From contig LEKP01000004.1 of NCBI GenBank assembly GCA_001443025.1, positions 27,560-91,559 of the forward strand: 64,000 bases of DNA, given 5' to 3'. The position numbers and the translations under genes were made by a program. A model generated the notes under the pieces. The model ran no database searches and was not told where the DNA came from. It worked only from the letters and a program-made list of their open reading frames with translations. The stretch is from Parcubacteria bacterium GBS-2. GTDB taxonomy: Bacteria > Patescibacteriota > Minisyncoccia > Minisyncoccales > GBS-2. Positions 2,798 through 46,512 of this stretch are shown here, piece by piece. Positions within the stretch are counted from its first letter, which is position 1. Each line of letters begins with the position of its first letter.

Positions 2798-2804
2798 AAA
2801 CTTT

Positions 2805-3116: not shown

Positions 3117-3120
3117 ATCC

Positions 3121-5569: not shown

Positions 5570-5614
5570 AAGTCTCCCTTTAGCACTTTCTATAGTTTTC
5601 TAGGGGGTGTTTTG

Positions 5615-13870: not shown

Positions 13871-13871
13871 A

Positions 13872-30719: not shown

Positions 30720-30994
30720 TCTTGCAATAGGCGTTGTTTCATTCTTTCAATATTGGACAAGATCGCACCCAAATTCACATGGGAAAAGGAGGAATTAAGA
30801 AAAAATTGTTCTTTCAATAAGAGAGCGAACAATTGAAGAAAAGAGAAAAGAAGAGGAGGGAGAATTAAAAATGCAAAAAATTATTTGATCCATCTTCAGT
30901 ATTTACTTTAATTTCTTTACTCTTTAGCCAATTTTTTTATCTCGCACAGTTTGTACGTTTTTTTATTTTTAAAAAGCAGATAAAATTAAATATT

Positions 30995-31915
30995 ATGAAA
31001 AAAACAGAAAACTACTTTGTCATTGGTATAGATGGTGGAGGAACAAAAACCGTTGGAGCATTGGCAAACCTAGAAGGAGAAATTTTAAGAGAAATTTACT
31101 CTTCTTCTACCAACCCAAACAAAATTGGCTTTGAATTAGCAATTTCAAGACTGAAAAATTTAATTTCAAAAATCTCAAAAAATAAAAAAATTAAAATTGC
31201 TTATTTAGGATTAGCGGGAGGATTAGAAAGGGACGAAGAAAAAAGAGAAAAGATAAAAAAAGAACTTCAAAAATTTTTTAATTTTCCAATTGTTATTGAT
31301 GGAGATCAAAGAATTGCTTTTAGAGCAGGAACTGATGAGAGAGATGGTGTAGTAGTGATTGCAGGAACTGGATCGATTGCTATGGGATGGAAAGAAAAAA
31401 AAGAAGCAATTTCTGGTGGTTGGGATTGGTTGTTTGGAGATCAAGGATCTGCTTTTTGGGTAGGGAAAGAAGTTCTAGAAGAAATTGGAAAAGCCTTAGA
31501 TGGACGAAGAAAAAGTTTTAGATTGAAGGATTTCGTTTTGAAAAGATTTAAAATTAAACAAGAAAAAGATCTCTACAATAAATTTTATTCCCAAAACTTT
31601 ATAACTCAGGTGGCCTCGATTTCAAAAATCGTCGATGAACTAGCAAGGAGAGGAGACTTTTTTTCGAAAAAAATTCTAATTGATGCAGGAAAACAAGTTT
31701 CGGAAATGGCGATTGCAGTAATCAAAAAATTAAAACTTGAAAACGAAACATTCCCAGTAGTTTTAGTTGGCGGGATGTTTGAATCGCAAATTTTCAAGAA
31801 AAAAGTAGAAAAGGAAATTAAACGAATAGTAAAAAAAGCAAAATTTATCTTATTGAGGAAAAAACCAGTGATTGGAGCAGTAAAGTTAGCGTTTGAGTTT
31901 CTTTACAAAGAATGA
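30995..31915 (+). CDS. BadF/BadG/BcrA/BcrD-type ATPase (N-acetylglucosamine kinase-like)
   Basis: IGIDGGGTKTVGAL, VVIAGTGSIAMG, and GWDWLFGDQGSAFWVG are ASKHA-fold phosphate motifs. Confidence 0.8.
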   Translation: MKKTENYFVIGIDGGGTKTVGALANLEGEILREIYSSSTNPNKIGFELAISRLKNLISKISKNKKIKIAYLGLAGGLERDEEKREKIKKELQKFFNFPIVIDGDQRIAFRAGTDERDGVVVIAGTGSIAMGWKEKKEAISGGWDWLFGDQGSAFWVGKEVLEEIGKALDGRRKSFRLKDFVLKRFKIKQEKDLYNKFYSQNFITQVASISKIVDELARRGDFFSKKILIDAGKQVSEMAIAVIKKLKLENETFPVVLVGGMFESQIFKKKVEKEIKRIVKKAKFILLRKKPVIGAVKLAFEFLYKE

Positions 31916-31946
31916 AAAATTTGCTAAATTTCAGGCGGTGATAAAA

Positions 31947-32195
31947 ATGGAGGGGGAAGAGAAAGTTCTTAAGGCAGTTCTTATTCATTTTTTCGGAAAG
32001 TATCCTTACTTACTCCAATACATTTCTCTTCCAGAAATATCTAAGCGAACTACTGTTGATCTTGAAATCGTCGAAAAAATTTTGAACACGATCTGGAAAG
32101 AAGCGCAGGAAGAAGAAAAAAAAGAATTGAAAAGGAGAGGAAAAAGATTGTTTGAAGAAGAGGAAGAATGCTACCTTTGCTTTCTCTATGAATAA
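31947..32195 (+). CDS. Hypothetical small acidic protein
   Basis: ORF with its likely start at MEGEEK. The track start at 31893 overlaps the previous gene. No motif recognised. Confidence 0.35.
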   Translation: MEGEEKVLKAVLIHFFGKYPYLLQYISLPEISKRTTVDLEIVEKILNTIWKEAQEEEKKELKRRGKRLFEEEEECYLCFLYE

Positions 32196-32207
32196 ATTTT
32201 TTTTACT

Positions 32208-32240
32208 AAAAGGGCTCTTTGCCCCTTTTTTATTTTTTTA
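32208..32240 (+). terminator. Rho-independent terminator
   Basis: AAAAGGGC-tctt-GCCCCTTTTTTATTTTTTT. Confidence 0.7.
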
Positions 32241-32420
32241 TTAATAACCGATTATATACTCGCAAGGGGGAATTTAAATCCTTCTTATCAAATAAACCTA
32301 TCAGCAAATTTCCTTATCCGTTTTAAACAAGGGATATTTTGAGATAAAATCCAATTATGTAGGCGAGTTAGGTATTCATTTAAAAGTCCCATCTGATAAT
32401 TTATTTTTTTGGCATAAATG

Positions 32421-32505
32421 TGCCCGGGGAGGGACTTGCACCCTCAAGGGGTTAAACCCCATGCGATTTTGAGTCGCACGCGTCTTCTAATTCCGCCACC
32501 CGGGC
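32421..32505 (-). tRNA. tRNA-Leu (anticodon CAA), type II with a long variable arm; CCA not encoded
   Basis: The minus strand reads GCCCGGGTGGCGGAATTAGAAGACGCGTGCGACTCAAAATCGCATGGGGTTTAACCCCTTGAGGGTGCAAGTCCCTCCCCGGGCA. Acceptor GCCCGGG/CCCGGGC, anticodon loop CT-CAA-AA, variable arm GGGGTTTAACCCC, T-arm GAGGG-TGCAAGT-CCCTC. Confidence 0.93.
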
Positions 32506-32630
32506 TTTTTCACTACTAGTGTATTATAAAATTTTAAAAAGTCAATGGATTAAAGTTTAGAGTTTTATTGGATTAAAACTAGTTGCAAAATAGAGCGACC
32601 GTTGGAAATTGTACCAGGTGCGTCCTCCTT

Positions 32631-34670
32631 TTATTTTTTGAGATAATCACAATTTTTATTTGAACATTTTATTTTTTTGTTTTCTTTTATTAAAAGTGAT
32701 TCACATCTTGGACATTTTTCTTCAGTAGGTTTTTCCCACAAAACAAAATCACATTTTGGATAATTTGAGCAACCCCAAAAGACTTTCCCTTTTTTGCTTT
32801 TTCTTTTCATCATTTCTCCCTTTTTGCATTTTGGGCATAAAATTCCAGTTGAGTTTTCCAAATCAAAAGTGTATTTACACTTTGGATAATTAGAACAAGC
32901 TAAAAACCTCCCGTATTTTGAAACTCTAATTAAAAGTTGAGCTCCGCACTTTGGGCATTTCTTTTCAGTTTTTTCCAAAATTCCAGCTCCTTTTATTTCT
33001 TTGTATTTTTTATTTAAATTTTCATTAAATGGTATATAAAATTCTTTTAAAGTTTCTACCCAATTCTTTTGACCATTGGCAATTTTATCCAAATCATCCT
33101 CCATTTTTGCGGTAAAACTTATATCAACAATTTCTGGAAAGTGTTTTACCAAAAGATCATTCACTAAAATTCCTACCGCAGTCGGATAAAACCTCTTTTT
33201 CTCATCTTTTTTAACATAATTTCTCTCTTGGATTGTTGCCAAAATGGGAGCGTAGGTTGAAGGCCTTCCAATTCCGTGTTTTTCAAGTTCTTTTATTAAA
33301 GTTGCCTCAGTATATCTTGGTGGAGGTTGGGTGAAATGCTGCAAGGGTAGAATTTTTACCACTTCTAAAATTTCTCCCTTTTCTAATTCTGGTAATTCTT
33401 CCTCCTCAAACTTCATTGGATAAACCTTTAAGAATCCATCAAACTTTAAAATTTGCCCTCTTGCCAAAAACCCATAATTTTTTGCTAAAATTTCAACTTC
33501 TGTTTTGTCAAAAATTGCTTGCGTCATTTGGGAAGCCAAAAACCTTCTCCAAATTAAATCATAAAGCTTCAATTGCTGTTCATTCAATTTTTCACTTAAA
33601 ACTTCAGGGGTTTTTTCAACATCTGTTGGCCTAATTGCTTCATGGGCTTCTTGAGCAACCTTAGATTTTGTTTTATAAACTCTTTGCTGGTAATAATTTT
33701 TACCGAAATTCTTCAGAATAAAATCCTCTGCCATTTTTAAGGCCAGCTCAGATAAATTCAAAGAATCCGTCCTATGGTAAGTAATGTATCCCATTTCATA
33801 AATTTGCTGGGCAATCTGCATTGTTTTTTCTGCAGACCAAGAAAATTTTTGCCAGGCAGTTTGTTGCATTGTTGAGGTTGTGAAAGGCTCTGGTGGATTT
33901 CTCTTTGCCTCTTTTCTTTCAATTTTTAAAACTTTAAATTTCGCATCTTTTAAATCCTCAACAATTTTTTTCGCCTCTTTTTCATTCTTTATTGCGAATT
34001 GATCCAACTTTTTTCCATCTTTCTTTACCAATACTGCCTTAAATTCCCCTTGGGATTTGGAATTTGGTGCTTGGAATTTCTTTAATGTTGCTTCTATCGT
34101 CCAGTATTCTTTCGGTTTAAAATTTTGAATCTCTCTTTCTCTTTCAACAATCAATCTTAAAGCAACAGACTGAACCCTTCCAGCAGAAAGTCCCTTTGCT
34201 ACCTTTCTCCAAAGTAGGGGAGAAAGCTTGTAACCTACGATTCTGTCTAAAATTCTTCTTGCTTGTTGAGCATTGACCAAATTCATGTCGATTTTTCTTG
34301 GATTTTTTAACGCCTCTTTTATTGCCTGTTCAGTTATTTCATGAAAAACAATTCTCCAATAAGGCTTTTTCTTTCCGAGTTTTAAAAGACATGCTAAGTG
34401 ATAGGCAATTGCCTCCCCCTCCCTATCAGGATCAGTAGACAAAATTACCAATTTTGCCTTTTTTGCCTCTTTTTCAATCTCTTTTATCCTTTCTTTTGCT
34501 CTTGGAGTAATTACATAAGTCGGTTTAAAGTTATTTTTAATATCAACTCCAAATTTGTGTTCTGGCAAATCTCTTACATGACCAAAAGAAGCAACGATTT
34601 TGAATTCCTTACCCAAGAACCTACTGATGGTTTTGGCCTTAGTTGGACTTTCAACGATTACCAATTGCAT
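32631..34670 (-). CDS. topA: DNA topoisomerase I with C-terminal Cys4 zinc ribbons
   Basis: MQLVIVESPTKAKTI (Toprim), DPDREGEAIA, ITYHRTDS (active-site Tyr region), and three CPKC/CPRC zinc-ribbon repeats. Confidence 0.96.
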   Translation of the reverse strand: MQLVIVESPTKAKTISRFLGKEFKIVASFGHVRDLPEHKFGVDIKNNFKPTYVITPRAKERIKEIEKEAKKAKLVILSTDPDREGEAIAYHLACLLKLGKKKPYWRIVFHEITEQAIKEALKNPRKIDMNLVNAQQARRILDRIVGYKLSPLLWRKVAKGLSAGRVQSVALRLIVEREREIQNFKPKEYWTIEATLKKFQAPNSKSQGEFKAVLVKKDGKKLDQFAIKNEKEAKKIVEDLKDAKFKVLKIERKEAKRNPPEPFTTSTMQQTAWQKFSWSAEKTMQIAQQIYEMGYITYHRTDSLNLSELALKMAEDFILKNFGKNYYQQRVYKTKSKVAQEAHEAIRPTDVEKTPEVLSEKLNEQQLKLYDLIWRRFLASQMTQAIFDKTEVEILAKNYGFLARGQILKFDGFLKVYPMKFEEEELPELEKGEILEVVKILPLQHFTQPPPRYTEATLIKELEKHGIGRPSTYAPILATIQERNYVKKDEKKRFYPTAVGILVNDLLVKHFPEIVDISFTAKMEDDLDKIANGQKNWVETLKEFYIPFNENLNKKYKEIKGAGILEKTEKKCPKCGAQLLIRVSKYGRFLACSNYPKCKYTFDLENSTGILCPKCKKGEMMKRKSKKGKVFWGCSNYPKCDFVLWEKPTEEKCPRCESLLIKENKKIKCSNKNCDYLKK
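34052..34079 (-). repeat. Heptanucleotide-periodic tract inside topA
   Basis: The coding strand reads AAATTCC AAGCACC AAATTCC AAATCCC, encoding FQAPNSKSQ. Confidence 0.8.
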
Positions 34671-35523
34671 AAATTCCTCCTCCTAAATTCTTTATTTTAC
34701 CTTCAATTTCCAAAATTGAAAGAAGAGATGCCACCTTTGAAGGCGAAAGCTTTGTTTTCTCAATTATCTTTTCAATATCTAAAGCCCCCTCTTTCAACAC
34801 TTCCAAAATCAAATTTTCCTCTGGCGTTTTTCCTTTAATTTCTTTTTCTCTCAATTTTGCTTTTTCAATTCCTAATTCCTCTAAAATATCTTTCGCACTC
34901 TCTACCAACTTTGCTCCATTTTTTATCAAAAAATGACATCCCTTTGAAGTTTGAGAGAAAACAGATCCAGGAACCGCAAAAATTTTTCTTCCTTGTTCTT
35001 TAGCGTAATTTGCAGTGATTAAAGATCCTGATCCCATTCTTGCTTCAACAACCAAAACTCCAAACGATAACCCAGAAATTATTCTATTTCTCTGAGGGAA
35101 AGTGTATTTTGTTCCATGAGTCCCTGGTTCAAATTCAGAAATTAAGCATCCTCCATTTTCTAAAATTTTATCAATTAATTTTAAATTTGATTTTGGATAA
35201 ATTGCCTTTTCATCAAGACCTGTGCCCAAAACCGCAATCGTCCTTTTTCCTCTTTCAATTGTCGCTTTGTGGGCTATTGTATCAATTCCTGGAGCAAAAC
35301 CAGAGACTATTGTTAAACCAGCCTCTGCCAGATCAGCTGAAATTTGGTAGGCAATCTCTTTACCGTAATTTGTGCACTTTCTTGTTCCGACAATAGCAAA
35401 ACAGTTTTCGTGGGATTTAATTTCCCCTAAAAAATAAAGAATCTTTGGTGGGTTTTGGATTTTTTTTAAAAGCTTTGGATAATTTTTGTCTTCAATTGAA
35501 ATAGATTTGACTTCAAACATCAA
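34651..35523 (-). CDS. dprA: DNA processing protein DprA (Smf)
   Basis: AIVGTRKCTNYGKEIA, SGFAPGIDTIAHKATIE, RNRIISGLS, and a C-terminal winged-helix-like tail. Confidence 0.9.
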   Translation of the reverse strand: MMFEVKSISIEDKNYPKLLKKIQNPPKILYFLGEIKSHENCFAIVGTRKCTNYGKEIAYQISADLAEAGLTIVSGFAPGIDTIAHKATIERGKRTIAVLGTGLDEKAIYPKSNLKLIDKILENGGCLISEFEPGTHGTKYTFPQRNRIISGLSFGVLVVEARMGSGSLITANYAKEQGRKIFAVPGSVFSQTSKGCHFLIKNGAKLVESAKDILEELGIEKAKLREKEIKGKTPEENLILEVLKEGALDIEKIIEKTKLSPSKVASLLSILEIEGKIKNLGGGIYAIGNR

Positions 35524-35524
35524 C

Positions 35525-35797
35525 TTAGGTTTTTTTCCAGTTCGTTAGAAGCTCAAGCATAGTCATTGTTTTTTCTCTCCTTTTTTGGGGTTTAATCTTT
35601 ATTTCTTTGTAAAAAATTCTTTCAAAAAAAAGCAATAGCAAAATATACTTTGCCAATTTCTTTTTCAGGATAATTTGGATCTTTTCTTGACAAAAATCCA
35701 GTGATCCCCATTCCAATTTGAGAATTGAATTTTTTTGGGCGATTTTTACCATCTCTTTGCTATAAACTGAATACTTATTAATCTTTTTCTTTGGCAC
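35525..35797 (-). CDS. Doubtful 90-aa ORF in the nadE-dprA gap
   Basis: This is the only long ORF in a 345-bp gap. It is low-complexity, has no motif, and a second short ORF (MGKKIEKEIAELL...) abuts the nadE stop in another frame. It may be a gene remnant. Confidence 0.2.
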   Translation of the reverse strand: MPKKKINKYSVYSKEMVKIAQKNSILKLEWGSLDFCQEKIQIILKKKLAKYILLLLFFERIFYKEIKIKPQKRREKTMTMLELLTNWKKT

Positions 35798-35868
35798 TCC
35801 AAAAAAATCTTTTGTTGTGGAGAATAAGCAACAATTCCGCTATTTCTTTTTCAATTTTCTTTCCCATT

Positions 35869-36732
35869 TTAGTATTTTAATTCATAAGGAAGAGAATTTT
35901 TAATCTGCCCAATTTTTGCCCTTTCTAAAATTTTTCTGATTTTTCTCTTTGGAATTTTAAAACTTTTTGAAATTTCATTTTTTGACATTTTTAAATCTTC
36001 TTTTGCTGACAAAACAATATCCGCTTCGAAATAATTAATTTCCAATTCTTTTTCCGCAAAATGTCCTTTCCAAAGTTCTGGCGACGGAGCTTTTGCTAAA
36101 ATTTCAGTCGGAATTTCTTTTAAGTAACTCGCTAATTGATGGACCTGAGTTTTCCAAAGATCTCTGATTGGTTCAATTCCTGAAGCGTTATCCCCCCAAA
36201 GAGTAAAATAGCCAAGAGCTTTTTCAGTTTTATCTTCACTTCCGACCACAATCGCGTTTAATGCTTTCGACAAATCAAACAAAATTTTCATTCTCTCTCT
36301 TGCCATCAAATTCCCTTTTCTAAGTTTTTGTTTACTTCCTTTAAACTTTTTGAGAAGATTCCAGCTCGCGTCCACTGGTTTGTTTATAAAAATTGTAATT
36401 AAATTTTTTTGTGGAATTTTTAGATTTTTAGCTAATTTTTCAACATCTTTTAAACTTTTCCTTGAAGTTACTCCCCGATAAGGAAGTCTTACTAAATAAA
36501 CATTTTTTGGCCCTAAGGCTTTAACTGTCAAAAGTGCAGATACTGACGAATTCAATCCTCCAGAAACTCCGAGAATTGCTTTTTTAAATCCGAATTTCTT
36601 AAAGTAGCTTTTCATTTCTTTTATTTTTGCCCTCAAGATTTTTTCTGCCTTTTTCTCATCCAGTTTTAAATGCAATGGAATTTTTTCAAGATTAAAGTAA
36701 ATTTTTTTATTCATACAATCTTCTTTTTTCAA
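35869..36732 (-). CDS. nadE: NH3-dependent NAD+ synthetase
   Basis: PP-loop GVSGGLNSSV and the NAD synthase pattern (GSEDKTEKALGYFTLWGD). The real start may be the Met at 36714. Confidence 0.88.
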   Translation of the reverse strand: MKKEDCMNKKIYFNLEKIPLHLKLDEKKAEKILRAKIKEMKSYFKKFGFKKAILGVSGGLNSSVSALLTVKALGPKNVYLVRLPYRGVTSRKSLKDVEKLAKNLKIPQKNLITIFINKPVDASWNLLKKFKGSKQKLRKGNLMARERMKILFDLSKALNAIVVGSEDKTEKALGYFTLWGDNASGIEPIRDLWKTQVHQLASYLKEIPTEILAKAPSPELWKGHFAEKELEINYFEADIVLSAKEDLKMSKNEISKSFKIPKRKIRKILERAKIGQIKNSLPYELKY

Positions 36733-37333
36733 TATACCTTAAGACTTTTTTTGGCAAAAATTTATCAACTTTCTCTCCCTTTTTAATTTTTTCTCTGATT
36801 TCGCTTGCTGAAATAGGAATTTTTCTTTTGATCAAAATTACTTTTTTAAGAACATTCCTCTTTTTCTTTTCGAGTTCTTTTGGAAGAGTTTTTAGATTAA
36901 ACTGAGAGTTTGGGCGAAGGAAAACAACAAAATTTGCCAAATCTAAGACTTTCAATTTTCCTTTCCATTTTCCTTCGATTATTTCTCTGAGAGAATCTTC
37001 CCCTATTATCCAGTAAATTTCAGAATTTTTATATTTTTTCTTTAAATATTTGATCGTCTCTATGGTATAGGATTTTCCTTTTTTCTTGACCTCGTAATCT
37101 GAGACTTTAAACCCTCCAACTCCTTCTATCAGCAGAGAAACCATTTTTAATCTATCTTCTGCCTTTGCCAAGCCAATTTTTTTTAACGGAGGCTTACCAT
37201 AGGGAATAAAAATAATCTCATCTAATTTCAACTTTTCTTTCGCAATTTGAGCAATTTTTAAGTGACCAAAATGAGGAGGGTTGAAAGCGCCTCCTAAAAC
37301 TCCAATTTTTATCTTTTTAAGGTTATTTCTCAT
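36707..37333 (-). CDS. nadD: Nicotinate-nucleotide adenylyltransferase
   Basis: IGVLGGAFNPPHFGHL (the (T/H)xGH motif) and ISASEIREKI (ISSTxxR-like). Confidence 0.9.
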   Translation of the reverse strand: MRNNLKKIKIGVLGGAFNPPHFGHLKIAQIAKEKLKLDEIIFIPYGKPPLKKIGLAKAEDRLKMVSLLIEGVGGFKVSDYEVKKKGKSYTIETIKYLKKKYKNSEIYWIIGEDSLREIIEGKWKGKLKVLDLANFVVFLRPNSQFNLKTLPKELEKKKRNVLKKVILIKRKIPISASEIREKIKKGEKVDKFLPKKVLRYIEKRRLYE

Positions 37334-37473
37334 TAGATGCTTTATTTTACGAAGAAAAAGAAAATAAAACTAGATGGATTTGACTTTTTGATTTGTTGAT
37401 AACATTTTAATGTAGAGGGGAAGAGAAATGATGAAAAGGGAGCAGTGGGCGATTTTCTTCGTTCTATCCAATC

Positions 37474-39456
37474 TTAATTTATCTTTTCAAGTTTTTTGTT
37501 CTTTAATTTTTCAATCGCTTCGAGAATCATTTGGCAATAAAGATTCAGTCCTACTTTATTTACATTTCCTGACTGTTCTTTTCCCAAAATGTTTCCCGCA
37601 CCTCTTATTTCTAAATCTTTTAAAGCAATCTTATATCCAGACCCCAATTCTTCAGCTTCTCTAAGGGCTTCTAATCTTTCTTTCATTGAAGGAGTTAATT
37701 TTTGAGGATAAAAAAAGTAAGCAAAGGATTGAACATTCGATCTTCCAATTCTTCCTTTAATCTGGTATGCCTGGGAAAGTCCTAACTTGGTAGAATCTGC
37801 CACGATTAAAGTATTACTATTTGGCAGATCTAGCCCCGCTTCGATTATTGTTGTTGCCACTAAAACGTCAATTCTTTTTCTTTGGAAGTTTTCTATTACT
37901 TTTATTAATTCTCTCTCTTTTAATCTTCCGTGGGCAATTCCAAATTTCACATTTGGCAAAAGAGCTTCCAAAAAACTTTTTACCGAAGAAATATTTTCGA
38001 TTTTATTGTGTAAATAGTAAACTTGTCCTCCTCTTTCAATTTCTTTTGCAATTGCTTCCTTTATTGTTTTTTCTGAAAAAGGCAAAATAAAGATTTTCGT
38101 TGGAATTCTTCCAACAGGGGGAGTTTGAATCAAAGAAATTTCCCTCAATCCAGAAAGAGAAAGATAAAGAGTTCTTGGAATTGGGGTTGCAGAAAGGGAC
38201 AAAACATCAATTTCAGCCCTCAATTTTTTTAGTTTTTCTTTTTGTCTTACTCCAAATTTATGTTCATCGTCAATCACCAAAAGCCCAAGTTTTTTAAATT
38301 CGACATCGCTTGATAAGATTCTGTGAGTTCCAACTAAAATATCGATTTTTCCTTCTTTCAATTTTTTAATCGTTTCCTTTTGCTCTTTTTTTGTTTGAAT
38401 TCTTGTTAAAATTTCTATTTCAATTGGCAAATCTTTCAACCTCTTTTTAAAATTTTGATAATGTTGATTTGCCAAAATCGTTGTCGGACAAAGCATTACA
38501 GCTTGATATCCAGACTCAACAACCCTGACCATTGCTCTCAAGGCAACTTCAGTTTTCCCAAATCCAACATCTCCACAAACCAATCTATCCATTGGTTTTT
38601 CTCCTCCTAAATCTTTTTCAATCTCTTCAATTGCTTTTTCTTGATCTGGAGTTTCTTCAAACGGAAAAGTTTCCTTTAAATACTTGACCATTTCGCTTTT
38701 TGAGTAAGGCGGACGAGTGACAATTTCCCTTTTTGCATAAATTTTCAAGAGTTCTCTGGCAAACTTTTCAGCTTCTTCTTTAACCTTCCTTTTAGTTTTT
38801 ATCCATGTTAAAGTTCCCAACCTTGAAATTTTTGGTTTTGAAAAACCAACATAACGAGAAAGCTTTCTTTCAAGACCAAAAGGCACATAAAGTTTATCTC
38901 CTTGAGCATATTCAATCTCATAATACTTTCTTGTTATTTCACGATCGTGAATTAATTCAACATCTTTGAAAATTCCAATTCCGTGGTCCAAATGAACTAA
39001 ATAATCTCCTGGTTTTAAACCTTTAAGGTCAGAAAAAATTTTCTGAGATTTTAATTTCTTTTTTAAAACTTCTTTCTCTCTTTTTTCATCTTCAATTTCA
39101 ATTGGCAATCTGAAAATGTTTTCAATTCTGTTACCCAAAAACTCAATTTTGATTGCAAAATTTAAATTTATTGGAAAAACATCAACAACTCCCCCTCTTT
39201 GTGAGAACTCTCCAATTTGAGAGACCTGCCAAACTTTTTCATATCCCATTTCATCCAATTTTCTCAACAAAAAAGAAAATGGAATTTTTAAATTCTTTTC
39301 TAAAAATAAAGTATTCTCTTGCCAGAAAATTTGAGTTTTTCGTGCCTCCAAGATTTTCTTTAAATTTTTTTCAAACCAAAAATTTTCCCTTTCTAAAAAA
39401 TAGGGGATGATAGAGACAATCAAAACTTTATCGATTTCTCTTGACAAATCCATCAA
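37474..39456 (-). CDS. mfd: Transcription-repair coupling factor, minimal form (RNAP-interacting domain plus translocase only)
   Basis: CarD/TRCF domain LKPGDYLVHLDHGIGIF...YAQGDKLYVP. SF2 helicase motifs GDVGFGKTEVA, DDEHKFG, SATPIPRT and GRIGRS. TRG motif LEIRGAGNILGKEQSG. Only 660 aa. Confidence 0.88.
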   Translation of the reverse strand: MMDLSREIDKVLIVSIIPYFLERENFWFEKNLKKILEARKTQIFWQENTLFLEKNLKIPFSFLLRKLDEMGYEKVWQVSQIGEFSQRGGVVDVFPINLNFAIKIEFLGNRIENIFRLPIEIEDEKREKEVLKKKLKSQKIFSDLKGLKPGDYLVHLDHGIGIFKDVELIHDREITRKYYEIEYAQGDKLYVPFGLERKLSRYVGFSKPKISRLGTLTWIKTKRKVKEEAEKFARELLKIYAKREIVTRPPYSKSEMVKYLKETFPFEETPDQEKAIEEIEKDLGGEKPMDRLVCGDVGFGKTEVALRAMVRVVESGYQAVMLCPTTILANQHYQNFKKRLKDLPIEIEILTRIQTKKEQKETIKKLKEGKIDILVGTHRILSSDVEFKKLGLLVIDDEHKFGVRQKEKLKKLRAEIDVLSLSATPIPRTLYLSLSGLREISLIQTPPVGRIPTKIFILPFSEKTIKEAIAKEIERGGQVYYLHNKIENISSVKSFLEALLPNVKFGIAHGRLKERELIKVIENFQRKRIDVLVATTIIEAGLDLPNSNTLIVADSTKLGLSQAYQIKGRIGRSNVQSFAYFFYPQKLTPSMKERLEALREAEELGSGYKIALKDLEIRGAGNILGKEQSGNVNKVGLNLYCQMILEAIEKLKNKKLEKIN

Positions 39457-39477
39457 AATTTGTTATTTTATTGTAAA

Positions 39478-39565
39478 CTGCGAGTGGCAAGGGATGCTCA
39501 CCTCCCATCCCTTGTCTTGAATGCGGGGAGGTCCGAGTGACTAACCTCGCGGCTCGCAGTTTTTT
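39478..39565 (+). ncRNA. Candidate small structured RNA of unknown class, with its own promoter and terminator
   Basis: TTGACA at 39441-39446, a 17-nt spacer, and TGtTATTTT (extended -10). Closing helix CTGCGAG (39478-39484)/CTCGCAG (39553-39559) followed by T6. Internal perfect 9-bp hairpin CAAGGGATG-ctcacctcc-CATCCCTTG. A second GC-rich hairpin GCGGGGAGGTC...GACTAACCTCGC. The loop ACCTCC is complementary to the downstream GGAGGT. The element is GC-rich in an AT-rich genome. Confidence 0.55.
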
Positions 39566-40136
39566 ATTTGTTAAATTCACTCATTGACTTCTCAGCTCCT
39601 TCTTTTATTGAAATCTCAATTGCTTTACACGTTAAATCAATTACCTTCTTTAAAATTTTTTCCTCTTTTTTACTAAATTTTTGAAGCACTAAATTTTTCT
39701 TATTGCTCTTTGCCCTATTGTTGGCTGTTCCAATTCCAACTCTAACCCTAACAAAATCTTTTGTTCCAATTTCATCAATTATTGATTGAACTCCTTTGTG
39801 GCCAGCAGATCCTCTGCCAAAAGAAATTTTAATTTTCCCAAATGGAATGTCCAAATCATCGTGAACCACTATTAAATTTTCACTTTTCAATTTCCAATTT
39901 TCAATTAAAAACTTTACCGATTTACCAGAATTGTTCATAAAAGTTTGAGGTTTTGCTAGAACAATCTTTTTTTCTCCAATTTTCTTTTCAGAAATCATTG
40001 CTAAAAACTCTTTTTTCAGTTTAAATTTTGGGAATTTTTTCTTCTTTGCAAACTCATCTAAAACCATAAATCCAAGGTTATGCCTCGTTTTTTCAAACTT
40101 TCTTCCTGGATTTCCAAGACCGACGATTAACTTCAT
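39564..40136 (-). CDS. pth: Peptidyl-tRNA hydrolase
   Basis: MKLIVGLGNPG..., TRHNLGF, and VVHDDLDIPFGKIK. Confidence 0.95.
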   Translation of the reverse strand: MKLIVGLGNPGRKFEKTRHNLGFMVLDEFAKKKKFPKFKLKKEFLAMISEKKIGEKKIVLAKPQTFMNNSGKSVKFLIENWKLKSENLIVVHDDLDIPFGKIKISFGRGSAGHKGVQSIIDEIGTKDFVRVRVGIGTANNRAKSNKKNLVLQKFSKKEEKILKKVIDLTCKAIEISIKEGAEKSMSEFNK

Positions 40137-40173
40137 CTTTTAATTTTATCGGTTTTTTGTTATAATTTTAACC

Positions 40174-40707
40174 ATGAAAATTTTAGACTTTTTCAAGGAA
40201 ATCTTGCAAACCGTTGTTTTGGCGCTTCTAATCGTTTTACCAATTCGTTTTTTTATTTTTCAACCCTTTATTGTTAAAGGACAATCAATGGAGCCAAATT
40301 TTGAGGACGGTGATTATTTAATTATTGATGAACTAACTTATAGATTCAGAGAACCAAAGAGGGGTGAAGTAATAGTTTTTAAAAACCCAATGAATGAACG
40401 TCAAAGGTTTATAAAAAGAATCATTGGTTTGCCAGGGGAAACTGTAGAAATCTCTGAAGGAAAAATTTTTATTTCAAATGGAGAAAAAAGAATTTTAAAC
40501 GAGCCTTATTTAAATTCTTCTTTTACCGTTGGGGATCTTCAAATAGCTCTTGGGAAAGATGAATACTTTGTTTTAGGAGACAATCGTCAATTTTCTTTGG
40601 ATTCAAGAAGGTTCGGTCCTATAAAAAGAAAAGAAATTGTGGGAAGGGTTTTGCTGAGGCTGTGGCCGATTTACTCTTTTGCAAAATTCGAAGCCCCAGC
40701 TTATTAA
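40174..40707 (+). CDS. lepB: Signal peptidase I
   Basis: N-terminal TM helix, catalytic Ser box VKGQSMEPNF, Lys box KRIIGLPGE, and GDNRQFSLDSR. Confidence 0.92.
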   Translation: MKILDFFKEILQTVVLALLIVLPIRFFIFQPFIVKGQSMEPNFEDGDYLIIDELTYRFREPKRGEVIVFKNPMNERQRFIKRIIGLPGETVEISEGKIFISNGEKRILNEPYLNSSFTVGDLQIALGKDEYFVLGDNRQFSLDSRRFGPIKRKEIVGRVLLRLWPIYSFAKFEAPAY

Positions 40708-40708
40708 A

Positions 40709-41983
40709 ATGCCAAAACCAAAATTTCAAACTCCAAAAGGAATGCACGACATTTTTGGTGAAAATTGGAAGTACTTTGATAAGATTTTCGAGGTAGTTAA
40801 ATCTTTTGCTAAATTTTACAATTTTGAAAGAATTGAGACCCCGGTTTTGGAAGAAGCTGAACTTTTTACAAAAGGAATAGGATTGGCCACAGACATAGTC
40901 CAAAAAGAAATGTTTCTTTTGAAAACAAAAGGAGGCGATTATTTAGCTTTAAGGCCAGAAGGAACTGCCCCGGTTGTGCGAGCTTACATTCAACACGGAA
41001 TGCAAAACCTTCCACAGCCTGTTAAGCTTTGGTATTTTTCTCAATTTTTTAGGTACGAGCATCCCCAAGCTGGAAGATTTAGACAATTTTGGCAATTTGG
41101 ATTTGAGATTTTAGGAAAACAAGCTCCAGCACTAGACACGCAGATCATTTTAATTTTTTACAATATTTTAAAAGAATTAGGCTTTGAAGCCCTGGCTATT
41201 AAAATAAACAGCATCGGCGACAGTTTTTGTCGGCCATACTACAAAAAAACCCTGATTTCTTATTTGAAGCATAGATCTTATGCTTTATGCCCAGATTGCA
41301 AAAGAAGACTGAAAGAGAATCCTTTGAGAATTTTAGATTGCAAAGAGGAAAAATGCAGGCAGATTATTTCTGAAGCCCCTCAGATTTTGAATCATTTATG
41401 CGAAAATTGTAAAAACCATTTAAAGACAGTTTTAGAATTTTTAGACGATCTTCAACTTCCTTATCATTTAGACCCTTATTTAGTCAGAGGATTAGATTAT
41501 TACACAAAAACAGTTTTTGAAATTTCCGAAGAAACTGAAAAAGGAAAAGCAGTTGGAGCATTGGTCGGAGGAGGAAGGTACGACAACTTGGCAAAAATTT
41601 TGGGAGGCCTAGAAATGCCAGGAGTTGGAGGGGCGGGAGGGGTTGAAAGAATTATTGAGTTATTAAAAGAAAAGCGAATTAAAATTTACAAAGAAAAAAA
41701 ACCAAAAATATTTCTTGCTCAAATTGGTGATTTAGCAAAAAGAAAAGCTTTAAAGATAGTAGAAGAATTTAGGAAAGAAAATTTACCAATATACGAATCA
41801 ATCGAGAAAGATTCGCTAAAATCACAGATGAAATTAGCAGATAAACTTGGCGTCAAGTATGTTCTAATTTTAGGCCATCAGGAAGCGTTAAACGAGGAAA
41901 TTTTATTAAGAGATATGGAAACCGGGAAACAAAAGAAAATAAGGTTGAAAAATTTAATAAAAGAGGTTAAAAAATATTTGTAA
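40709..41983 (+). CDS. hisS: Histidyl-tRNA synthetase
   Basis: PKGMHDI, class II motifs LRPEGTAPVVRAY, FRYEHPQAGRFRQFWQFGFE and GGGRYD, plus an anticodon-binding domain. The ATG at 40709 follows the lepB stop and is preferred over the track start at 40679. Confidence 0.95.
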   Translation: MPKPKFQTPKGMHDIFGENWKYFDKIFEVVKSFAKFYNFERIETPVLEEAELFTKGIGLATDIVQKEMFLLKTKGGDYLALRPEGTAPVVRAYIQHGMQNLPQPVKLWYFSQFFRYEHPQAGRFRQFWQFGFEILGKQAPALDTQIILIFYNILKELGFEALAIKINSIGDSFCRPYYKKTLISYLKHRSYALCPDCKRRLKENPLRILDCKEEKCRQIISEAPQILNHLCENCKNHLKTVLEFLDDLQLPYHLDPYLVRGLDYYTKTVFEISEETEKGKAVGALVGGGRYDNLAKILGGLEMPGVGGAGGVERIIELLKEKRIKIYKEKKPKIFLAQIGDLAKRKALKIVEEFRKENLPIYESIEKDSLKSQMKLADKLGVKYVLILGHQEALNEEILLRDMETGKQKKIRLKNLIKEVKKYL

Positions 41984-41984
41984 C

Positions 41985-42206
41985 ATGCCAGTTAAAGTTG
42001 TCAAAAGAGAAAAAGAAACAGTAGCAAGTTTGATTAGAAGGTTTCAAAAAGCAGTTCAAAAAAGCGGAATTTTAGTACGGGCGAGAGAAAAAATGTATCG
42101 AGATAGAAATTTATCTGAGGAAAAGAAAAAAAGAAAGGCGTTAAGGAGGGAGCAGTTGAAAAAGTATTACGAAAAATTGGACAAAATGGGTTTATTAGAA
42201 AAATGA
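41985..42206 (+). CDS. rpsU: 30S ribosomal protein S21
   Basis: MPVKVVKREKETVASLIRRFQKAVQKSGIL..., 73 aa and basic. Confidence 0.9.
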   Translation: MPVKVVKREKETVASLIRRFQKAVQKSGILVRAREKMYRDRNLSEEKKKRKALRREQLKKYYEKLDKMGLLEK

Positions 42207-42706
42207 TCCTGAAAGAAAAAATTGAAAAAGATTTGGCAGAGGCAATAAAGAGTAGAAAAGAAAGAGAAATTTCTGTTTTGAGGTTACTTAAAGACGCAAT
42301 TTTTTTAAAAGAAAAGGAAAAAAGATATAAAATCTTTACTCAGAAAAAGGGAATAAGTGAAAAAGAATTAGAAAAAGAAAGCCAGCTTTCAGATGAAGAA
42401 ATAATTCAAGTTATTTCCTCTGAAATAAAGAAAAGAAAAGAGGCAATTTTGGAATTTGAAAAGGGAAAAAGAAGTGATTTAGTTAAAAAAGAAAGTGAAG
42501 AAATTGAGATTTTGAGGAGGTATTTGCCAGAACAACTTTCGGAAGAAGAGATAAGAAAAATGGCAAAAGAAATAATAGACAAAGTTAAAGCAGGAAATTT
42601 AAAGGACATGGGAAAAGTGATGCAAGAATTAATGCCTAAAGTGAAGGGGAGAGCTGATGGAGCTTTAGTTTCGAAAGTTGTTAGAGAATTATTATCAACA
42701 CAATGA
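42203..42706 (+). CDS. GatB/YqeY domain protein
   Basis: LKEKIEKDLAEAIKSRKEREISVLRLLKDAI and a C-terminal MGKVMQELMPKVKGRADGALVSKVV, matching the YqeY pattern. Confidence 0.85.
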   Translation: MILKEKIEKDLAEAIKSRKEREISVLRLLKDAIFLKEKEKRYKIFTQKKGISEKELEKESQLSDEEIIQVISSEIKKRKEAILEFEKGKRSDLVKKESEEIEILRRYLPEQLSEEEIRKMAKEIIDKVKAGNLKDMGKVMQELMPKVKGRADGALVSKVVRELLSTQ

Positions 42707-43893
42707 AAGACTTAATTTGTGCAATCGATATTGGGAGTTCAAAGATTAGGATTTTAGTCGTGAAAAAGGAAAAAGAAAATTTGGAGGCAATTTTTAAATC
42801 AGAACAAAATTCTGAAGGAGTAAAAAAAGGAGTGATTACTGAGCCTGAAAGAGCATCTAAGATTTTAAAGGAATTAATTTTTTCCGCGACTCAGAATATA
42901 CGAAAAAAAATAAATTCTGCTCTAGTGAATCTTGGTGGTATCCATTTGTTTGCAGTGCCTACTCGAGCCTTAATCTCTGTGTCCAGAGCAGATCAAACAG
43001 TTTCTGAGGAAGACTTGAATAGAGTTTTGCAAGAAGCAAAAATAATTAACGTGGGGCAAAACAAAGAAATTTTTGATTTGTCTGTTAAGGAATTTATCCT
43101 TGATGGAGAGCGAGGGATAAAAGATCCAGTTGGGTTGAAAGGGTCGAGATTAGAAGTTGAAGCTTTAGGTCTTGGCTATTTTTCTCCCTGTTTGGAGAAT
43201 TTAAAAAAAACTCTTTTAAATTCTGGGCTTGAAGTTTTTGAACTAATTCCTGCCCCGATAGCTTGTTCTCTTGCAGTTTTGACCGAGCAACAAAAAAACT
43301 TGGGAGTTTGTCTTTTGGATATTGGAGCTCAAACTACTTCGATTTCAGTTTTTGAAGATGGAAATTTGACTTTCTTTTCGGTTTTACCAATTGGGGCTCA
43401 AGAAATTACTAACAAAATCGCAATTCAGATGCAAATCGATCCGGAGCTGGCAGAGAGATTAAAAGTAGAATTCGGAAGTTGTTATTTTAAGGGTAAGAAT
43501 AAAAGAGAAAAGATTGAATTTGAAGATGAAGACCCTTTAATCTTTTATCCAAGATCTTTAGCAAGAATTATCAGAGAAGGATATTCGGCAATCTTTGATT
43601 CAGTTTTAAAGGAATTAAAAAAGGCCTCAAAAGACAGAAGGTTGCCAGCTGGAATAGTTTTGACAGGAGGAGGAGCAAAAGTACCCAAAATTTTAGAATT
43701 AGCAAAATTGAAATTCAAATTAAATTGCAAAATTGGCAAGCCAAAAGGAATTTTGAATTTAGAAGAAAATCCTTCTCTTTCAACCTTAGTTGGGCTTGTT
43801 TTGAGCTCCTTAGAGTTAGAAGAAGAAAAAGAAACTCAAAAGTTTGGATTTTTTTCGAAAATTAAAAAGTTCCTCAGAATTTTTCTTCCATGA
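42703..43893 (+). CDS. ftsA: Cell division protein FtsA
   Basis: AIDIGSSKIRILV, LLDIGAQTTSISVF, and GIVLTGGGAKVP are actin-fold phosphate motifs with FtsA domain order. Confidence 0.88.
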   Translation: MKDLICAIDIGSSKIRILVVKKEKENLEAIFKSEQNSEGVKKGVITEPERASKILKELIFSATQNIRKKINSALVNLGGIHLFAVPTRALISVSRADQTVSEEDLNRVLQEAKIINVGQNKEIFDLSVKEFILDGERGIKDPVGLKGSRLEVEALGLGYFSPCLENLKKTLLNSGLEVFELIPAPIACSLAVLTEQQKNLGVCLLDIGAQTTSISVFEDGNLTFFSVLPIGAQEITNKIAIQMQIDPELAERLKVEFGSCYFKGKNKREKIEFEDEDPLIFYPRSLARIIREGYSAIFDSVLKELKKASKDRRLPAGIVLTGGGAKVPKILELAKLKFKLNCKIGKPKGILNLEENPSLSTLVGLVLSSLELEEEKETQKFGFFSKIKKFLRIFLP

Positions 43894-44498
43894 TTCCAAT
43901 TTCGGATGAGAGAGAAAGTGGTAAGTTTCCTATTTTAACAATTACTCTAATTTTAATAAACGCGGTCGTTTTTCTTTTTATTTTTTTTAATCTCGATTTT
44001 TTCATTCAAGAATTCGGTTTTATACCAGAGAAAGTTAAAAACGGAGAAAGGCTCTACACTTTTTTATCTTCTCTTTTCATTCATGCAAGTTTTTCACATT
44101 TAATTGGTAATCTTTGGTTTTTATGGATTTTTGGAGATAACGTTGAGGCAAAAATTGGAAGAATTAAATTCTTAATTTTGTACTTTCTTTCAGGCCTTGG
44201 ATCTTTGATTTTATTTTCTTTCACAACTTCAAACAAAACAATTCCAGTGGTTGGAGCTTCTGGAGCTATCTCTGGAATTTTAGGGGCATATTTGGTTTTG
44301 TTTCCAAAAAATAAAATCAAAGCCATAGTGCCATTTTTTTATTTTTATAGAATCGTTTCCATTCCAGCTCTTTTTTATATCGGGATTTGGTTTTTGTATC
44401 AATTTTTATACATGTCTGTTGATCCTTTTGTAGCTTATTGGGGACACATTGGTGGATTTTTAACGGGGCTTTTCCTTATAAAAATTTTTTCAAAATAA
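43890..44498 (+). CDS. Rhomboid-family intramembrane serine protease
   Basis: FIHASFSHLIGNLWFLWIFG, catalytic GASGAISGILGAY, and HIGGFLTG, with 6 TM helices. Confidence 0.88.
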   Translation: MIPISDERESGKFPILTITLILINAVVFLFIFFNLDFFIQEFGFIPEKVKNGERLYTFLSSLFIHASFSHLIGNLWFLWIFGDNVEAKIGRIKFLILYFLSGLGSLILFSFTTSNKTIPVVGASGAISGILGAYLVLFPKNKIKAIVPFFYFYRIVSIPALFYIGIWFLYQFLYMSVDPFVAYWGHIGGFLTGLFLIKIFSK

Positions 44499-44574
44499 AA
44501 AAGCCAAAAGTTACATTTTTGTTGAATTTCAAAATCGATTTTGTAAAGTTTTATACATTAATTAAAATCTTCTA

Positions 44575-46023
44575 ATGACTTTTTCAAAGATTCTTTTTTA
44601 TTTTTGCCTTTCTTTCATCGGAGGAATTTTTATTGCTTCCTTTTTCAAAGTTTCCCTTCCTTTTTCCCTTTCAATTTTAATTTTGGCTTTGTTTATAATT
44701 TCAGTTTTTCCAAAATCTCAAAACCTTTTAGTTTTAGGATTTTGCGTTTTATTTTTTGCTTTTGGAATTTTCAGGTTTCAAAATTATTTTTCAAAAATTC
44801 AAAGTCAAGAAATCAAAAATTTTGTCGGAAAAGAAATTTCAATTTTTGGGACAATTGAAGAGGAACCTGTAATAAGAGAAAAATCGATCGTTTTTCCAGT
44901 AAAAACTGAAATTGGAAAAATCTTAATCAAAGCAAAAAGGTATCCAGAATTTGAATATGGAGAGAAGGTAAAAATTACTGGGATCTTAAAGGAACCAGAG
45001 ACTAAAGATTCATTCAATTGGAAAAATTATTTGCTCAAAGATGGAATTTTGGTTGAGATGGATTTTCCAGAAATTAAGGAAACTGGAGAAAAATTTGGAA
45101 ATCCAATAAAAAGGTTTTCTATATTTTTAAAAAAGAAAATTGAAGAAGCAATAAAACAAAACCTTCCGCCTTTGCATTCTGCACTTTTGAAATCTCTTTT
45201 ATTTGGCGAAGAACAAGATCTTCCTTTTGAATGGAAAGAGAAACTAAACCAAACTGGAGTAAGACACATTGCTGCAGTTTCTGGAATGAACATTACAATA
45301 ATTTCTTCTTTAATTTTAAGTTTTCTTTTATTTTTAGGTCTTTGGCGCCATCATGCTTTTTATCTCTCAATTTTTTTAATTTCCTTTTATGTTTTAATGA
45401 TCGGTGCTCCTTCTTCTGCAATCAGAGCAGCGATTATGGGGATTTTGTTCTTGACAGCCCAGCATTTTGGAAGAATAGCAAGCGGAGAAAGGTCAGTAGT
45501 TTTTTCCGCAACCTTGATGCTCCTTTTCAATCCATTGCTTTTGAGATACGACATTGGCTTTCAGCTTTCATTTTTGGCAATTTTAGGAATAATTTATTTT
45601 TATCAGTTTTTCTTTGAAAAACTCAGAAAATTTCCAAAAACAATCAGAGAAGGGTTATCGTCAACTTTGTCTGCCCAAATTTTTACTTTCCCAATTTTAA
45701 TTTACAACTTTGGTCAAATTTCTTTGATTTCTCCTTTAACCAACCTTTTAATTTTGCCACTCTTACCGGTCATTACAATTTTGGGATTTGTCTTTTCCTT
45801 TTTTGGGACAATCCTTCAACCAATCGGCTCTTTTCTCTCTTTTCCTTCTTGGTTTTTATTAAGTTATCTTTTAAAAGTCGTCGATCTCTTTTCAAAAATT
45901 CCCTTTTCATTTTTGGCTCTTAAAGTCAATTTTCTCTTTCTCTTAGTTTCTTATTCACTCTTGGTTTTCCTTGCTCTTCATTTGAACAAAAAATTTTCCC
46001 AACCTATATTTTTGAGGCAGTAG
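44575..46023 (+). CDS. comEC: ComEC/Rec2-family competence channel (DUF4131 plus Competence domains, no C-terminal metallo-beta-lactamase domain)
   Basis: N-terminal TM helices plus an OB-like segment (ISIFGTIEEEPVIREKSIVFPV). Competence-domain motifs GVRHIAAVSGMNITII and SFLAILGI. The ORF ends after the last TM helices. Confidence 0.8.
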   Translation: MTFSKILFYFCLSFIGGIFIASFFKVSLPFSLSILILALFIISVFPKSQNLLVLGFCVLFFAFGIFRFQNYFSKIQSQEIKNFVGKEISIFGTIEEEPVIREKSIVFPVKTEIGKILIKAKRYPEFEYGEKVKITGILKEPETKDSFNWKNYLLKDGILVEMDFPEIKETGEKFGNPIKRFSIFLKKKIEEAIKQNLPPLHSALLKSLLFGEEQDLPFEWKEKLNQTGVRHIAAVSGMNITIISSLILSFLLFLGLWRHHAFYLSIFLISFYVLMIGAPSSAIRAAIMGILFLTAQHFGRIASGERSVVFSATLMLLFNPLLLRYDIGFQLSFLAILGIIYFYQFFFEKLRKFPKTIREGLSSTLSAQIFTFPILIYNFGQISLISPLTNLLILPLLPVITILGFVFSFFGTILQPIGSFLSFPSWFLLSYLLKVVDLFSKIPFSFLALKVNFLFLLVSYSLLVFLALHLNKKFSQPIFLRQ

Positions 46024-46447
46024 CGATTTTTATGAAAGATTCACTTCTTTTTACTAACATTTAGAAATTTGCTATTATTAAAAGCGGTGAGATGAATGAT
46101 AGGAGGAGAAATGTACGTAGAGATAATTATTAGATTTGTTCAAGAGGGGGGGTCGAAAGAGAGCTGAGAATCGAAGGGATTCTCATTGACCATCATGCAC
46201 GAAATTCTAAACTTCTGAACCAAGGAAGCATCAGCGACAATCTATTGGCTCCTTTGATGATTTTTCTAAATAGGGGGAGATTCTCTTACAAGTTTCTGCT
46301 AAAGATTCAGGAGAGACAAAAATGGATAAAGAAGAAGGTGAAGGTCAATCAGGTATTGGTGACTCTTCGTCCAAAGTCCCTTTTAGTTCCTTAGTTCCCT
46401 CCTTTATTTTTTTCAGCCCATAATTTTTGTGGCCTGAAAAAGCAGAA

Positions 46448-46474
46448 ACACCCCAAAAGGAATGGGGTGTTTTT
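46448..46474 (+). terminator. Rho-independent terminator closing an unannotated ~400-bp unit
   Basis: ACACCCC-aaaaggaat-GGGGTGT followed by TTTT. It overlaps the track's ATG at 46462, which argues for the downstream start at 46513. Confidence 0.6.
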
Positions 46475-46512
46475 GGTTGGGAAAAAAAGTGAAAATAACA
46501 TATAATGAATTA

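Follow-up and report, generated by a model that had tools for sequence, protein, structure and literature searches.

The question addressed here is what occupies the short gap between the mfd and pth genes of Parcubacteria bacterium GBS-2, where a GC-rich segment able to fold strongly lies antisense to the junction of the two genes. The locus is part of a stretch of 64,000 nucleotides (contig LEKP01000004.1, positions 27,560 to 91,559 of the forward strand), which is referred to below as the window. A previous reading made from the letters of this DNA alone (the sequence-only reading) had proposed that the gap carries a stand-alone structured RNA, read from the plus strand between a promoter and a terminator of its own, and this proposal is upheld by covariation, by a strand test and by a promoter conserved in 18 homologues. 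The comparative analysis shows that the element at 39476-39565 (+) is a conserved gene, present in one copy, which encodes a small stable RNA and which, as judged from its sequence and those of its relatives, is transcribed independently. It matches no described family and represents a new family of stand-alone bacterial structured small RNA (sRNA).

Structure and coding strand of the RNA

When 39476-39565 is folded on the plus strand the minimum free energy is -43.7 kcal/mol (z = -5.3), and none of 200 shuffled sequences folded equally well; the reverse complement folds less well (-37.1 kcal/mol, z -4.1). In 80-nt steps the GC content of the window, 0.33 on average, peaks in the segment from 39460 to 39580 with a value of 0.625, higher than at the genes for tRNA-Leu and for transfer-messenger RNA (tmRNA), and the earlier description of the segment as GC-rich was thus accurate. 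The promoter, the closing helix, the two hairpins and the T6 tract were all found where the sequence-only reading had placed them.

The RNA body of approximately 85-90 nt, with a 5' end deduced from promoter geometry and a 3' end set by the U tract, forms a three-way junction composed of the closing helix P1 (1-10/77-86 in RNA numbering), hairpin 1 (11-41) and hairpin 2 (47-76). The 5' strand of P1 (AACUGCGAGU, 39476-39485) pairs with GCUCGCAGUU at 39552-39561, its core being CTGCGAG (39478-39484) and CTCGCAG (39553-39559). Hairpin 1 (39486-39516) has an 11-bp stem, of which nine pairs (CAAGGGATG/CATCCCTTG) had been described before, and an apical loop at 39497-39505 (CTCACCTCC in the DNA, CUCACCUCC in the RNA) that includes an invariant CCUCC at 39501-39505. 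Hairpin 2 (39522-39551) has a purine-rich 5' strand, UGCGGGGAGGUC, and the loop CGAGU. P1 abuts both hairpins without a spacer, the junction strands being 0, 5 and 0 nt long, and the sole unpaired junction segment is UUGAA at 39517-39521 (consensus UURAA, positions 42-46). Two pairs, U10-G77 and U47-G76, come in addition to those of the first description. P1 is followed by a U6 tract (39560-39565), which shares nucleotides with the end of the oppositely oriented pth, and helix and tract together make up a 3' end like that of an intrinsic terminator; it was missing from a consensus terminator scan because the loop limit of that scan is 3-8 nt.

A covariance model was built from 15 sequences and used to align all 18 distinct homologues; the window scores 103.7 bits with this model and contains exactly one copy. 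In the alignment 97.7% of the 574 pair cells are paired, as compared to 42-50% when the partners are slid by one to three columns, and changes on both sides are seen in 14 of the 32 pairs (58 cells); not one of 500 shuffles reached any of these measures. Each homologue also folds independently into the same junction, with z between -8 and -14. The three-way junction, first suggested from a single sequence, is therefore backed by the alignment as a whole. In hairpin 1, 8 of 11 pairs changed on both sides and 99% of the cells are paired; at least seven unrelated stem sequences occur, namely CAAGGGAUG, GUGAAGGUG, UAUAAUGAG, UAUAACGGG, ACAAGAAAG and UAAGGGGUG, together with AGAAUAGG in L056 (L-numbers denote metagenomic or genomic loci of relatives). 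In hairpin 2 both-side changes affect 5 of 11 pairs, and its closing pair U47-G76 covaries through UG, UA, CG and GC. All cells of P1 are paired (100%), with A2-U85 replaced by C-G in three sequences and U10-G77 by C-G in two.

The alignment also identifies the strand. Among the pair cells there are 82 G-U against 3 A-C, and pairing falls from 97.7% on the plus strand to 84.0% if the alignment is read on the other; the selected fold is therefore that of the plus strand, which is also the strand of the promoter and the U tract. The same counts rule out a minus-strand element, such as the 5' untranslated region of mfd or a terminator of pth, as the fold under selection. A small open reading frame (ORF) inside the RNA, starting at a GUG after GGAGG, was rejected, since the alternation of T5 and T6 shifts its frame, which is not conserved. 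The loops of hairpin 2 show no complementarity in the alignment that tracks loop 1, and inspection of the alignment by eye for triple-helix or loop-loop contacts gave no consistent register.

It had also been pointed out that the loop sequence ACCUCC could pair with a GGAGGU of hairpin 2, such that a pseudoknot or an alternative fold might form. The complementarity is present in the window; the pseudoknot or alternative fold is not borne out. The proposed pairing holds in 82.5% of cells, which equals the shuffled mean of 82.4% (361 of 500 shuffles did equally well), and the GGAGG on the 5' strand of hairpin 2 is not conserved, being absent in L056 and degenerate (GGAGAGA) in L016.

Homologues, promoter and genetic autonomy

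Relatives of the RNA were collected by synteny and by pattern. The Pth protein occurs on metagenomic contigs, and its homologues are labelled Patescibacteria; synteny with pth alone yielded an element in the pth-mfd gap in L005, L006/L008, L011, L015 and L016. The pattern search fixed CTGCGAG, TTRAANGCGG and GCTCGCAG and left the stems free. In its strict form it gave one real and one chance match among 185,579 GTDB species representatives, and one genome match is labelled uncultured Candidatus Saccharibacteria. A looser form gave 32 metagenome loci, of which approximately 19 are real (AT-rich loci with an identical fold), the others being chance matches in GC-rich DNA. The total came to 18 distinct homologous sequences. 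The comparison with relatives that the sequence-only reading had recommended thus returned both homologues and compensatory changes.

There were no pattern matches in viral contigs (IMG/VR), and a phage origin was discarded on that account; a mobile element was likewise discarded, as the RNA is present in a single copy in the window and in a syntenic position. No homologue is found near pth in L010 or in L013/L014, where the position is taken by an ORF of 86 amino acids (L010) or by a tRNA and a transposase fragment (L013). In L010 (4636-4896, minus strand), where mfd is missing from this position, the same promoter position, TCTCTTGACA, drives the 86-amino-acid ORF instead of the RNA. As far as sampled, the RNA appears to be restricted to one lineage of Patescibacteria.

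The promoter in the window consists of a -35 hexamer TTGACA at 39441-39446 (+), inside codons 3-4 of mfd on the opposite strand, and an extended -10 element TGtTATTTT at 39461-39469 (TG at 39461-39462, TATTTT at 39464-39469); a promoter scan gave 10 of 12 consensus matches with the TG present and a 17-nt spacer. TTGACA is retained in 17 of the 18 distinct homologues (TTGGCA in L011), even where mfd is not adjacent, and a -10 element is found in all of them as TGnTATTAT, TATAAT or TATCAT, again with a 17-nt spacer. The distance between promoter and P1 is constant in all 18 sequences, and the transcript of the short forms, which end in T5-T6, is therefore expected to have its first nucleotide 1-2 nt ahead of CUGCGAG.

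At most loci the -35 hexamer falls in codons 3-4 of mfd and the U tract extends over the end of pth, which makes the RNA antisense to the pth-mfd junction. This arrangement is not universal. In L011 and L015 inserted toxin-antitoxin genes part the RNA from pth and leave the module intact; in L021, L024 and L044 an ORF of about 60 amino acids encoding a Zn-ribbon with two CPKC motifs is located between mfd and the RNA (e.g., L024:4190-4450), equipped with a separate terminator and a duplicate of the TTGACA promoter; and in L039 the RNA is found between ppa and tmk. The features generally expected of an sRNA gene can all be read from the sequence: its own promoter, its own terminator, the lack of an ORF, a conserved structure and a conserved single-stranded seed.

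Conserved core and larger forms

The conserved part of the RNA is the junction, GCGAG-U-GG...CC-UURAA...CUCGC, which comprises the junction-proximal part of P1 and the base of hairpin 1. It should be noted that the invariance of P1 and junction in the 12 sequences derived from the pattern (of 18) was imposed, because the pattern fixed those segments; the six variants obtained from synteny alone show the same invariance. The UURAA strand in particular is invariant in the 18 sequences, was required by the pattern scan, and is kept in the six synteny-only variants; in L056 it reads UUAAA(A).

The second constant feature is the CCUCC of loop 1. None of the 18 sequences departs from it, nor do the L056 and L054 forms described below, although the stem beneath it has been fully replaced several times. 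It is predicted to be fully unpaired (P > 0.95) in 19 of 20 sequences. Around it, the loop varies in length from 7 to 15 nt and reads (G/C)UCACCUCC in the clade of the window and AUCCCUCCU(U/A)A or CUCCCUCCU in more distant clades. The apex of hairpin 2 is variable, with two architectures and six loops (CGAGU, CAAGU, UUAAU, UAAU, UUUU, UAAAU); in L016 this hairpin is a perfect 13-bp helix closed by UUUU.

The RNA also varies in size. P1 is longer by 15-17 bp of unrelated sequence in L015, L016 and L027 (z -9 to -14), which brings the RNA to approximately 125 nt. Two further Pth-syntenic clades, L056-58 and L052-55, were missed by the covariance model and recognised by eye. In L056-58 the same promoter precedes an RNA with a 23-bp closing helix, the inner part of which is CCUGCGA/UCGCGGG (z = -8.8), and with the loop GAUCCCUCCUUAAAA; the base of hairpin 2 in L056 is CAUG/CAUG in place of GCGG/YYGC and is fully compensated. 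In L052-55 (e.g., L054:2870-3262, minus strand) a structured RNA of approximately 370 nt (z = -11.6) occupies the same place between pth and mfd behind the same promoter. It has three P1-like helices, CUGCGAG/CUCGCAG (outer), GGGCGAG-UGG...CUCGCCC (inner) and CUGCGAG-CGAA-CUCGCUG, and two outer P1 pairs of its inner unit are compensated; it carries the motif AUCCCUCCUAA and has no match in Rfam. Homology of this form with the short RNA is plausible but not proven by these likenesses, and it may be an expanded relative that arose by internal duplication.

Comparison with known RNA families

Searches with Rfam 15 gave no confident match to any known family, including the divergent signal recognition particle (SRP) RNA that the sequence-only reading had named as the finding that would overturn it. 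In the window, at gathering thresholds and at E <= 0.5, only tmRNA and tRNA-Leu were found, both elsewhere, the remainder being noise from microRNA and snoRNA models. The region 39380-39640 had no match at E <= 10, the L016 form (E <= 10) and the L054 form (E <= 5) had no credible match, and a scan of 147 kb of sequence from relatives gave nothing credible for the RNA. ARAGORN detected only the tRNA-Leu at 32420-32505 and was negative for the RNA element. Text searches of the literature retrieved no paper that describes an RNA of this kind from Patescibacteria.

Individual families were considered in turn. The 4.5S SRP RNA (RF00169) is also small, GC-rich and stable, with paired ends in a closing helix of variable length and its own promoter and terminator, but it is a single elongated hairpin where the RNA of Patescibacteria is a three-way junction; hairpin 2 is without the GNAR tetraloop and the symmetric and asymmetric loops that form the Ffh site in SRP helix 8. 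SRP RNA was rejected, as its covariance model did not match at any threshold used and no helix 8 motif is present. A tRNA or tRNA-like molecule was rejected because ARAGORN and the Rfam tRNA model match elsewhere only and hairpin 2 has no T-loop sequence. A likeness in size and shape to small riboswitches or ribozymes had been remarked upon; it did not hold up, there being neither a match to an Rfam family nor an expression platform in cis. In the case of riboswitches (e.g., purine), P1 itself is followed by U6, the next gene, pth, is on the opposite strand, and locus contexts differ; none of the Rfam aptamer models matched the RNA element, and loop-helix pairing is no better than in shuffles. 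Small self-cleaving ribozymes (hammerhead, twister, twister-sister, pistol, hatchet) gave no Rfam match, and no hammerhead, twister or pistol core is present.

The one sRNA family that cmscan places nearby is RsaE/RoxS (RF01820), at 19.7 bits and E 0.28, in L016 only and far from the gathering threshold of 79; this model has no match in the window. In RsaE/RoxS of Firmicutes conserved unpaired C-rich motifs pair with G-rich or Shine-Dalgarno (SD) regions of mRNAs. The two have in common a stand-alone gene of about 100 nt with its own promoter and terminator and an unpaired C-rich motif, and the invariant CCUCC, predicted to be unpaired, could serve as a seed of the RsaE/RoxS type. RsaE/RoxS differs in having several UCCC motifs and no three-way junction and in belonging to another phylum, the two being non-homologous; a further difference is that the junction of the Patescibacteria RNA is conserved in sequence. 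The similarity is one of style, the C-rich unpaired motif, and not of family. Yfr1 of cyanobacteria is a short sRNA in which a conserved single-stranded pyrimidine-rich motif, ACUCCUCACAC, is held by GC-rich stems. Compared by description only, the Yfr1 motif lies between two hairpins, as opposed to the apical loop of a three-way junction; there is no sequence relation between the two, and the Rfam scans were without a credible match.

Possible functions

Given that no gene lies downstream in cis, a trans-acting role is the reasonable default, as the sequence-only reading had also held. By analogy with other sRNAs we tentatively favour an RNA whose loop pairs in trans with a small set of GGAGG-type sites. 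The junction would serve as a rigid, nuclease-resistant scaffold that presents loop 1, with P1 doubling as terminator stem. Loop 1, in the form (G/C)UCACCUCC or AUCCCUCCUU, would be a copy of the 3' tail of 16S ribosomal RNA (rRNA) and could pair with G-rich sequences of the GGAGG type in other transcripts, and such pairing would block ribosome access or remodel leader structures, as for the C-rich-loop sRNAs RsaE/RoxS.

The target set would be small because the genome hardly uses SD sequences. GGAGG precedes only 1 of the 16 genes called near the locus (L001, window 29565-46560), and before ORF starts it is no commoner than control 5-mers; its excess in the window (122 occurrences against 32 expected) is compositional and was rejected as a sign of SD usage, the genes nearby being mostly without an SD. 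Boxes resembling a -10 element are found 7-15 nt ahead of many ATGs, which suggests leaderless mRNAs or mRNAs with very short leaders. With gene starts so poor in SD sequences, the loop would be an anti-SD copy in a genome that hardly uses SD. A general anti-SD role was rejected for the same reason, and topA was dropped as a conserved SD target since its GGAGG is absent in L015, which carries the RNA.

As candidate targets we consider the GGGAGG boxes of two leader hairpins, 5484-5576 and 13776-13872. These belong to elements at 5403 and 13688 (5400-5580 and 13690-13880, plus strand), which consist of nested long hairpins (z -6.8 and -5.4), each behind a TCTTGACA promoter and a short ORF, and which share the boxes GGGAGGYUARG, YUAGCCUCCC and GGAGGCU. 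The hairpin at 5403 ends in U5 and precedes an ORF at 5519-6379, and therefore looks like a leader, attenuator or terminator. The sequence-only reading had suggested that these two elements and the RNA form one family or regulon, on account of a shared -35 context and of GGGAGG/CCTCCC in the RNA. The family relation was not confirmed: the covariance model finds a single copy in the window, and the two elements, being nested long hairpins, are related to each other and not to the RNA. The shared TCTTGACA is the promoter consensus, present in six copies in the window, a number reached by 9 of 100 shuffles. The 5' arm of the hairpin at 5403 contains UGGGAGGU (5507-5514), to which ACCUCCCA of the RNA is complementary throughout, and a pairing of the RNA with this leader is possible but unproven.

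Several observations weigh against the pairing of the loop with GGAGG-type sites as the function of the RNA. The SD-poor genome makes a general anti-SD role implausible, a seed of 5-8 nt is common by composition, as the frequency of GGAGG illustrates, and the sequence conservation of P1 and junction, which for 12 of the 18 sequences follows from the search pattern, exceeds what a purely base-pairing sRNA needs and may point to a bound protein or to tertiary folding.

The conserved P1 and junction would be explained if the RNA were a mimic of the 16S rRNA 3' end acting as a decoy or regulator of a protein, with the loop, perhaps together with the 5' strand of P1, imitating the tail GAUCACCUCCUU near helix 45. 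The 3' strand of helix 45 and the anti-SD tail form the binding site of the KH domain of Era, and candidate partners would be an Era-type KH GTPase, a 3'-end maturation nuclease such as YbeY, bS21 or a toxin that cuts the anti-SD. The similarity extends beyond CCUCC (UUCACCUCCUUA in L027, GAUCCCUCCUUA in L056, GAUCCCUCCUAA in L015 and CUCACCUCC in the window): loop 1 reproduces 8-12 nt, and 11-12 nt in L027 and L056, of the 16S 3' end, GAUCACCUCCUUA, and the 5' strand of P1 with the junction, CCUGCGAGUGG, resembles CCUGCGGCUGG, which precedes the tail in 16S. An anti-SD copy in an SD-poor genome is also hard to explain by SD pairing alone, the sequence conservation of P1 and junction is what a protein site would lead one to expect, and P1-like helices occur three times in the ~370-nt form. 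On the other side, the likeness was seen post hoc and was judged against the 16S sequences of Escherichia coli and Bacillus subtilis, no 16S gene being present in the window or the loci. The 16S tail is a free end that directly follows helix 45, whereas in the RNA the tail-like sequence is in a hairpin loop, set apart by a stem of 9-11 bp from the strand that resembles helix 45. We consider such a mimic unlikely, and slightly more so its specific version in which the RNA displays the 16S 3'-end copy on its junction and titrates a tail-reading factor in an SD-poor lineage; to our knowledge, an RNA decoy of a site of ribosome biogenesis or attack has not been described among bacterial sRNAs.

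It is also doubtful that the three-way junction itself is the functional centre, the loop making a secondary contact, in a protein-bound housekeeping or scaffold RNA or in a catalytic RNA. Such an RNA could be expected to have an invariant junction with freely varying stems, a strong promoter of constitutive type, a single copy and a housekeeping neighbourhood, all of which are seen here, and the plasticity in size (85, ~125 and ~370 nt) round a constant core recalls the RNase P, SRP and tmRNA families. The distribution of the RNA is narrow for such a role, with one real match to the strict pattern among the GTDB representatives and absence near pth in L010 and L013, and there is no similarity to any Rfam family.

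A function in cis at pth-mfd, whether as an antisense to read-through transcripts, an occluder of a weak mfd promoter or a bidirectional terminator or insulator, is improbable. The usual position of the module, with its -35 in mfd codons 3-4 and its U tract over the end of pth, would suit it, as would the overlap of the RNA's -10 element with a box of similar type that serves the mfd strand and reads AATAAA in the window but TATAAT in relatives, and the reverse complement folds too. However, promoter, structure and loop are kept where the RNA is split from mfd, split from pth or moved to ppa/tmk; selection acts on the plus-strand fold; neither occlusion nor termination needs an invariant loop or junction; and the RNA starts 23 nt upstream of the mfd start codon, without overlap.

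A divergent member of a known family (4.5S RNA, a tRNA-like RNA, an orphan riboswitch aptamer or a small self-cleaving ribozyme) is hardly credible, for even though the size, the GC richness, the own promoter and terminator and the variable closing helix recall 4.5S RNA, no SRP RNA gene (ffs) was found in the 64-kb window or in the 147 kb of relatives (only a fraction of a genome), and a 7-bp helix followed by U-G-G recalls a tRNA acceptor stem with U8, Rfam gives no credible match to the short region with the threshold relaxed to E <= 10, ARAGORN is negative, hairpin 2 lacks the SRP features and is a perfect helix in L016, and no T-loop, hammerhead or twister core or cis platform is present.

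Neighbouring genes and other features

The mfd-like gene at 37474-39456 (-) starts at 39456 (TTG) or 39453 (ATG) and encodes 659 amino acids with the domains UvrB_inter, CarD_TRCF_RID, DEAD and Helicase_C. Mfd typically has a length of approximately 1100-1200 amino acids; the protein in the window is therefore a shortened form, as it is in all relatives. The gene is without an SD. The -10-like box of the mfd strand (39454-39475, minus strand; TATAAT in, e.g., L006) is located 11-13 nt ahead of the mfd ATG, so placed on the RNA's own -10 element that the two promoters stand back to back. On the other flank is pth (39564-40136, minus strand, stop codon included). An ORF of 50 amino acids with a GTG start (39428-39580, minus strand) traverses the entire RNA element; it is most likely spurious, since it is not conserved and its path leads through stems with compensatory changes. 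Elsewhere in the window, short tandem repeats similar to GCTGGTT are found at 3120-3200, adjoining the tmRNA gene (2802-3116, minus strand).

Significance

Our literature text searches indicate that almost nothing is known of regulatory or structural RNAs in Patescibacteria, also called the candidate phyla radiation (CPR). If the RNA were merely another base-pairing sRNA it would be a useful yet ordinary addition to the RNA family databases. The evolution of a family in size around one core, from 85 to ~125 to ~370 nt, is unusual. What the locus offers is a clean case, backed by covariation, of an RNA gene, present once, that combines a consensus promoter and a conserved junction with an anti-SD copy in an SD-poor genome, and as such it may give a handle on post-transcriptional control or on ribosome biology in ultra-small bacteria.

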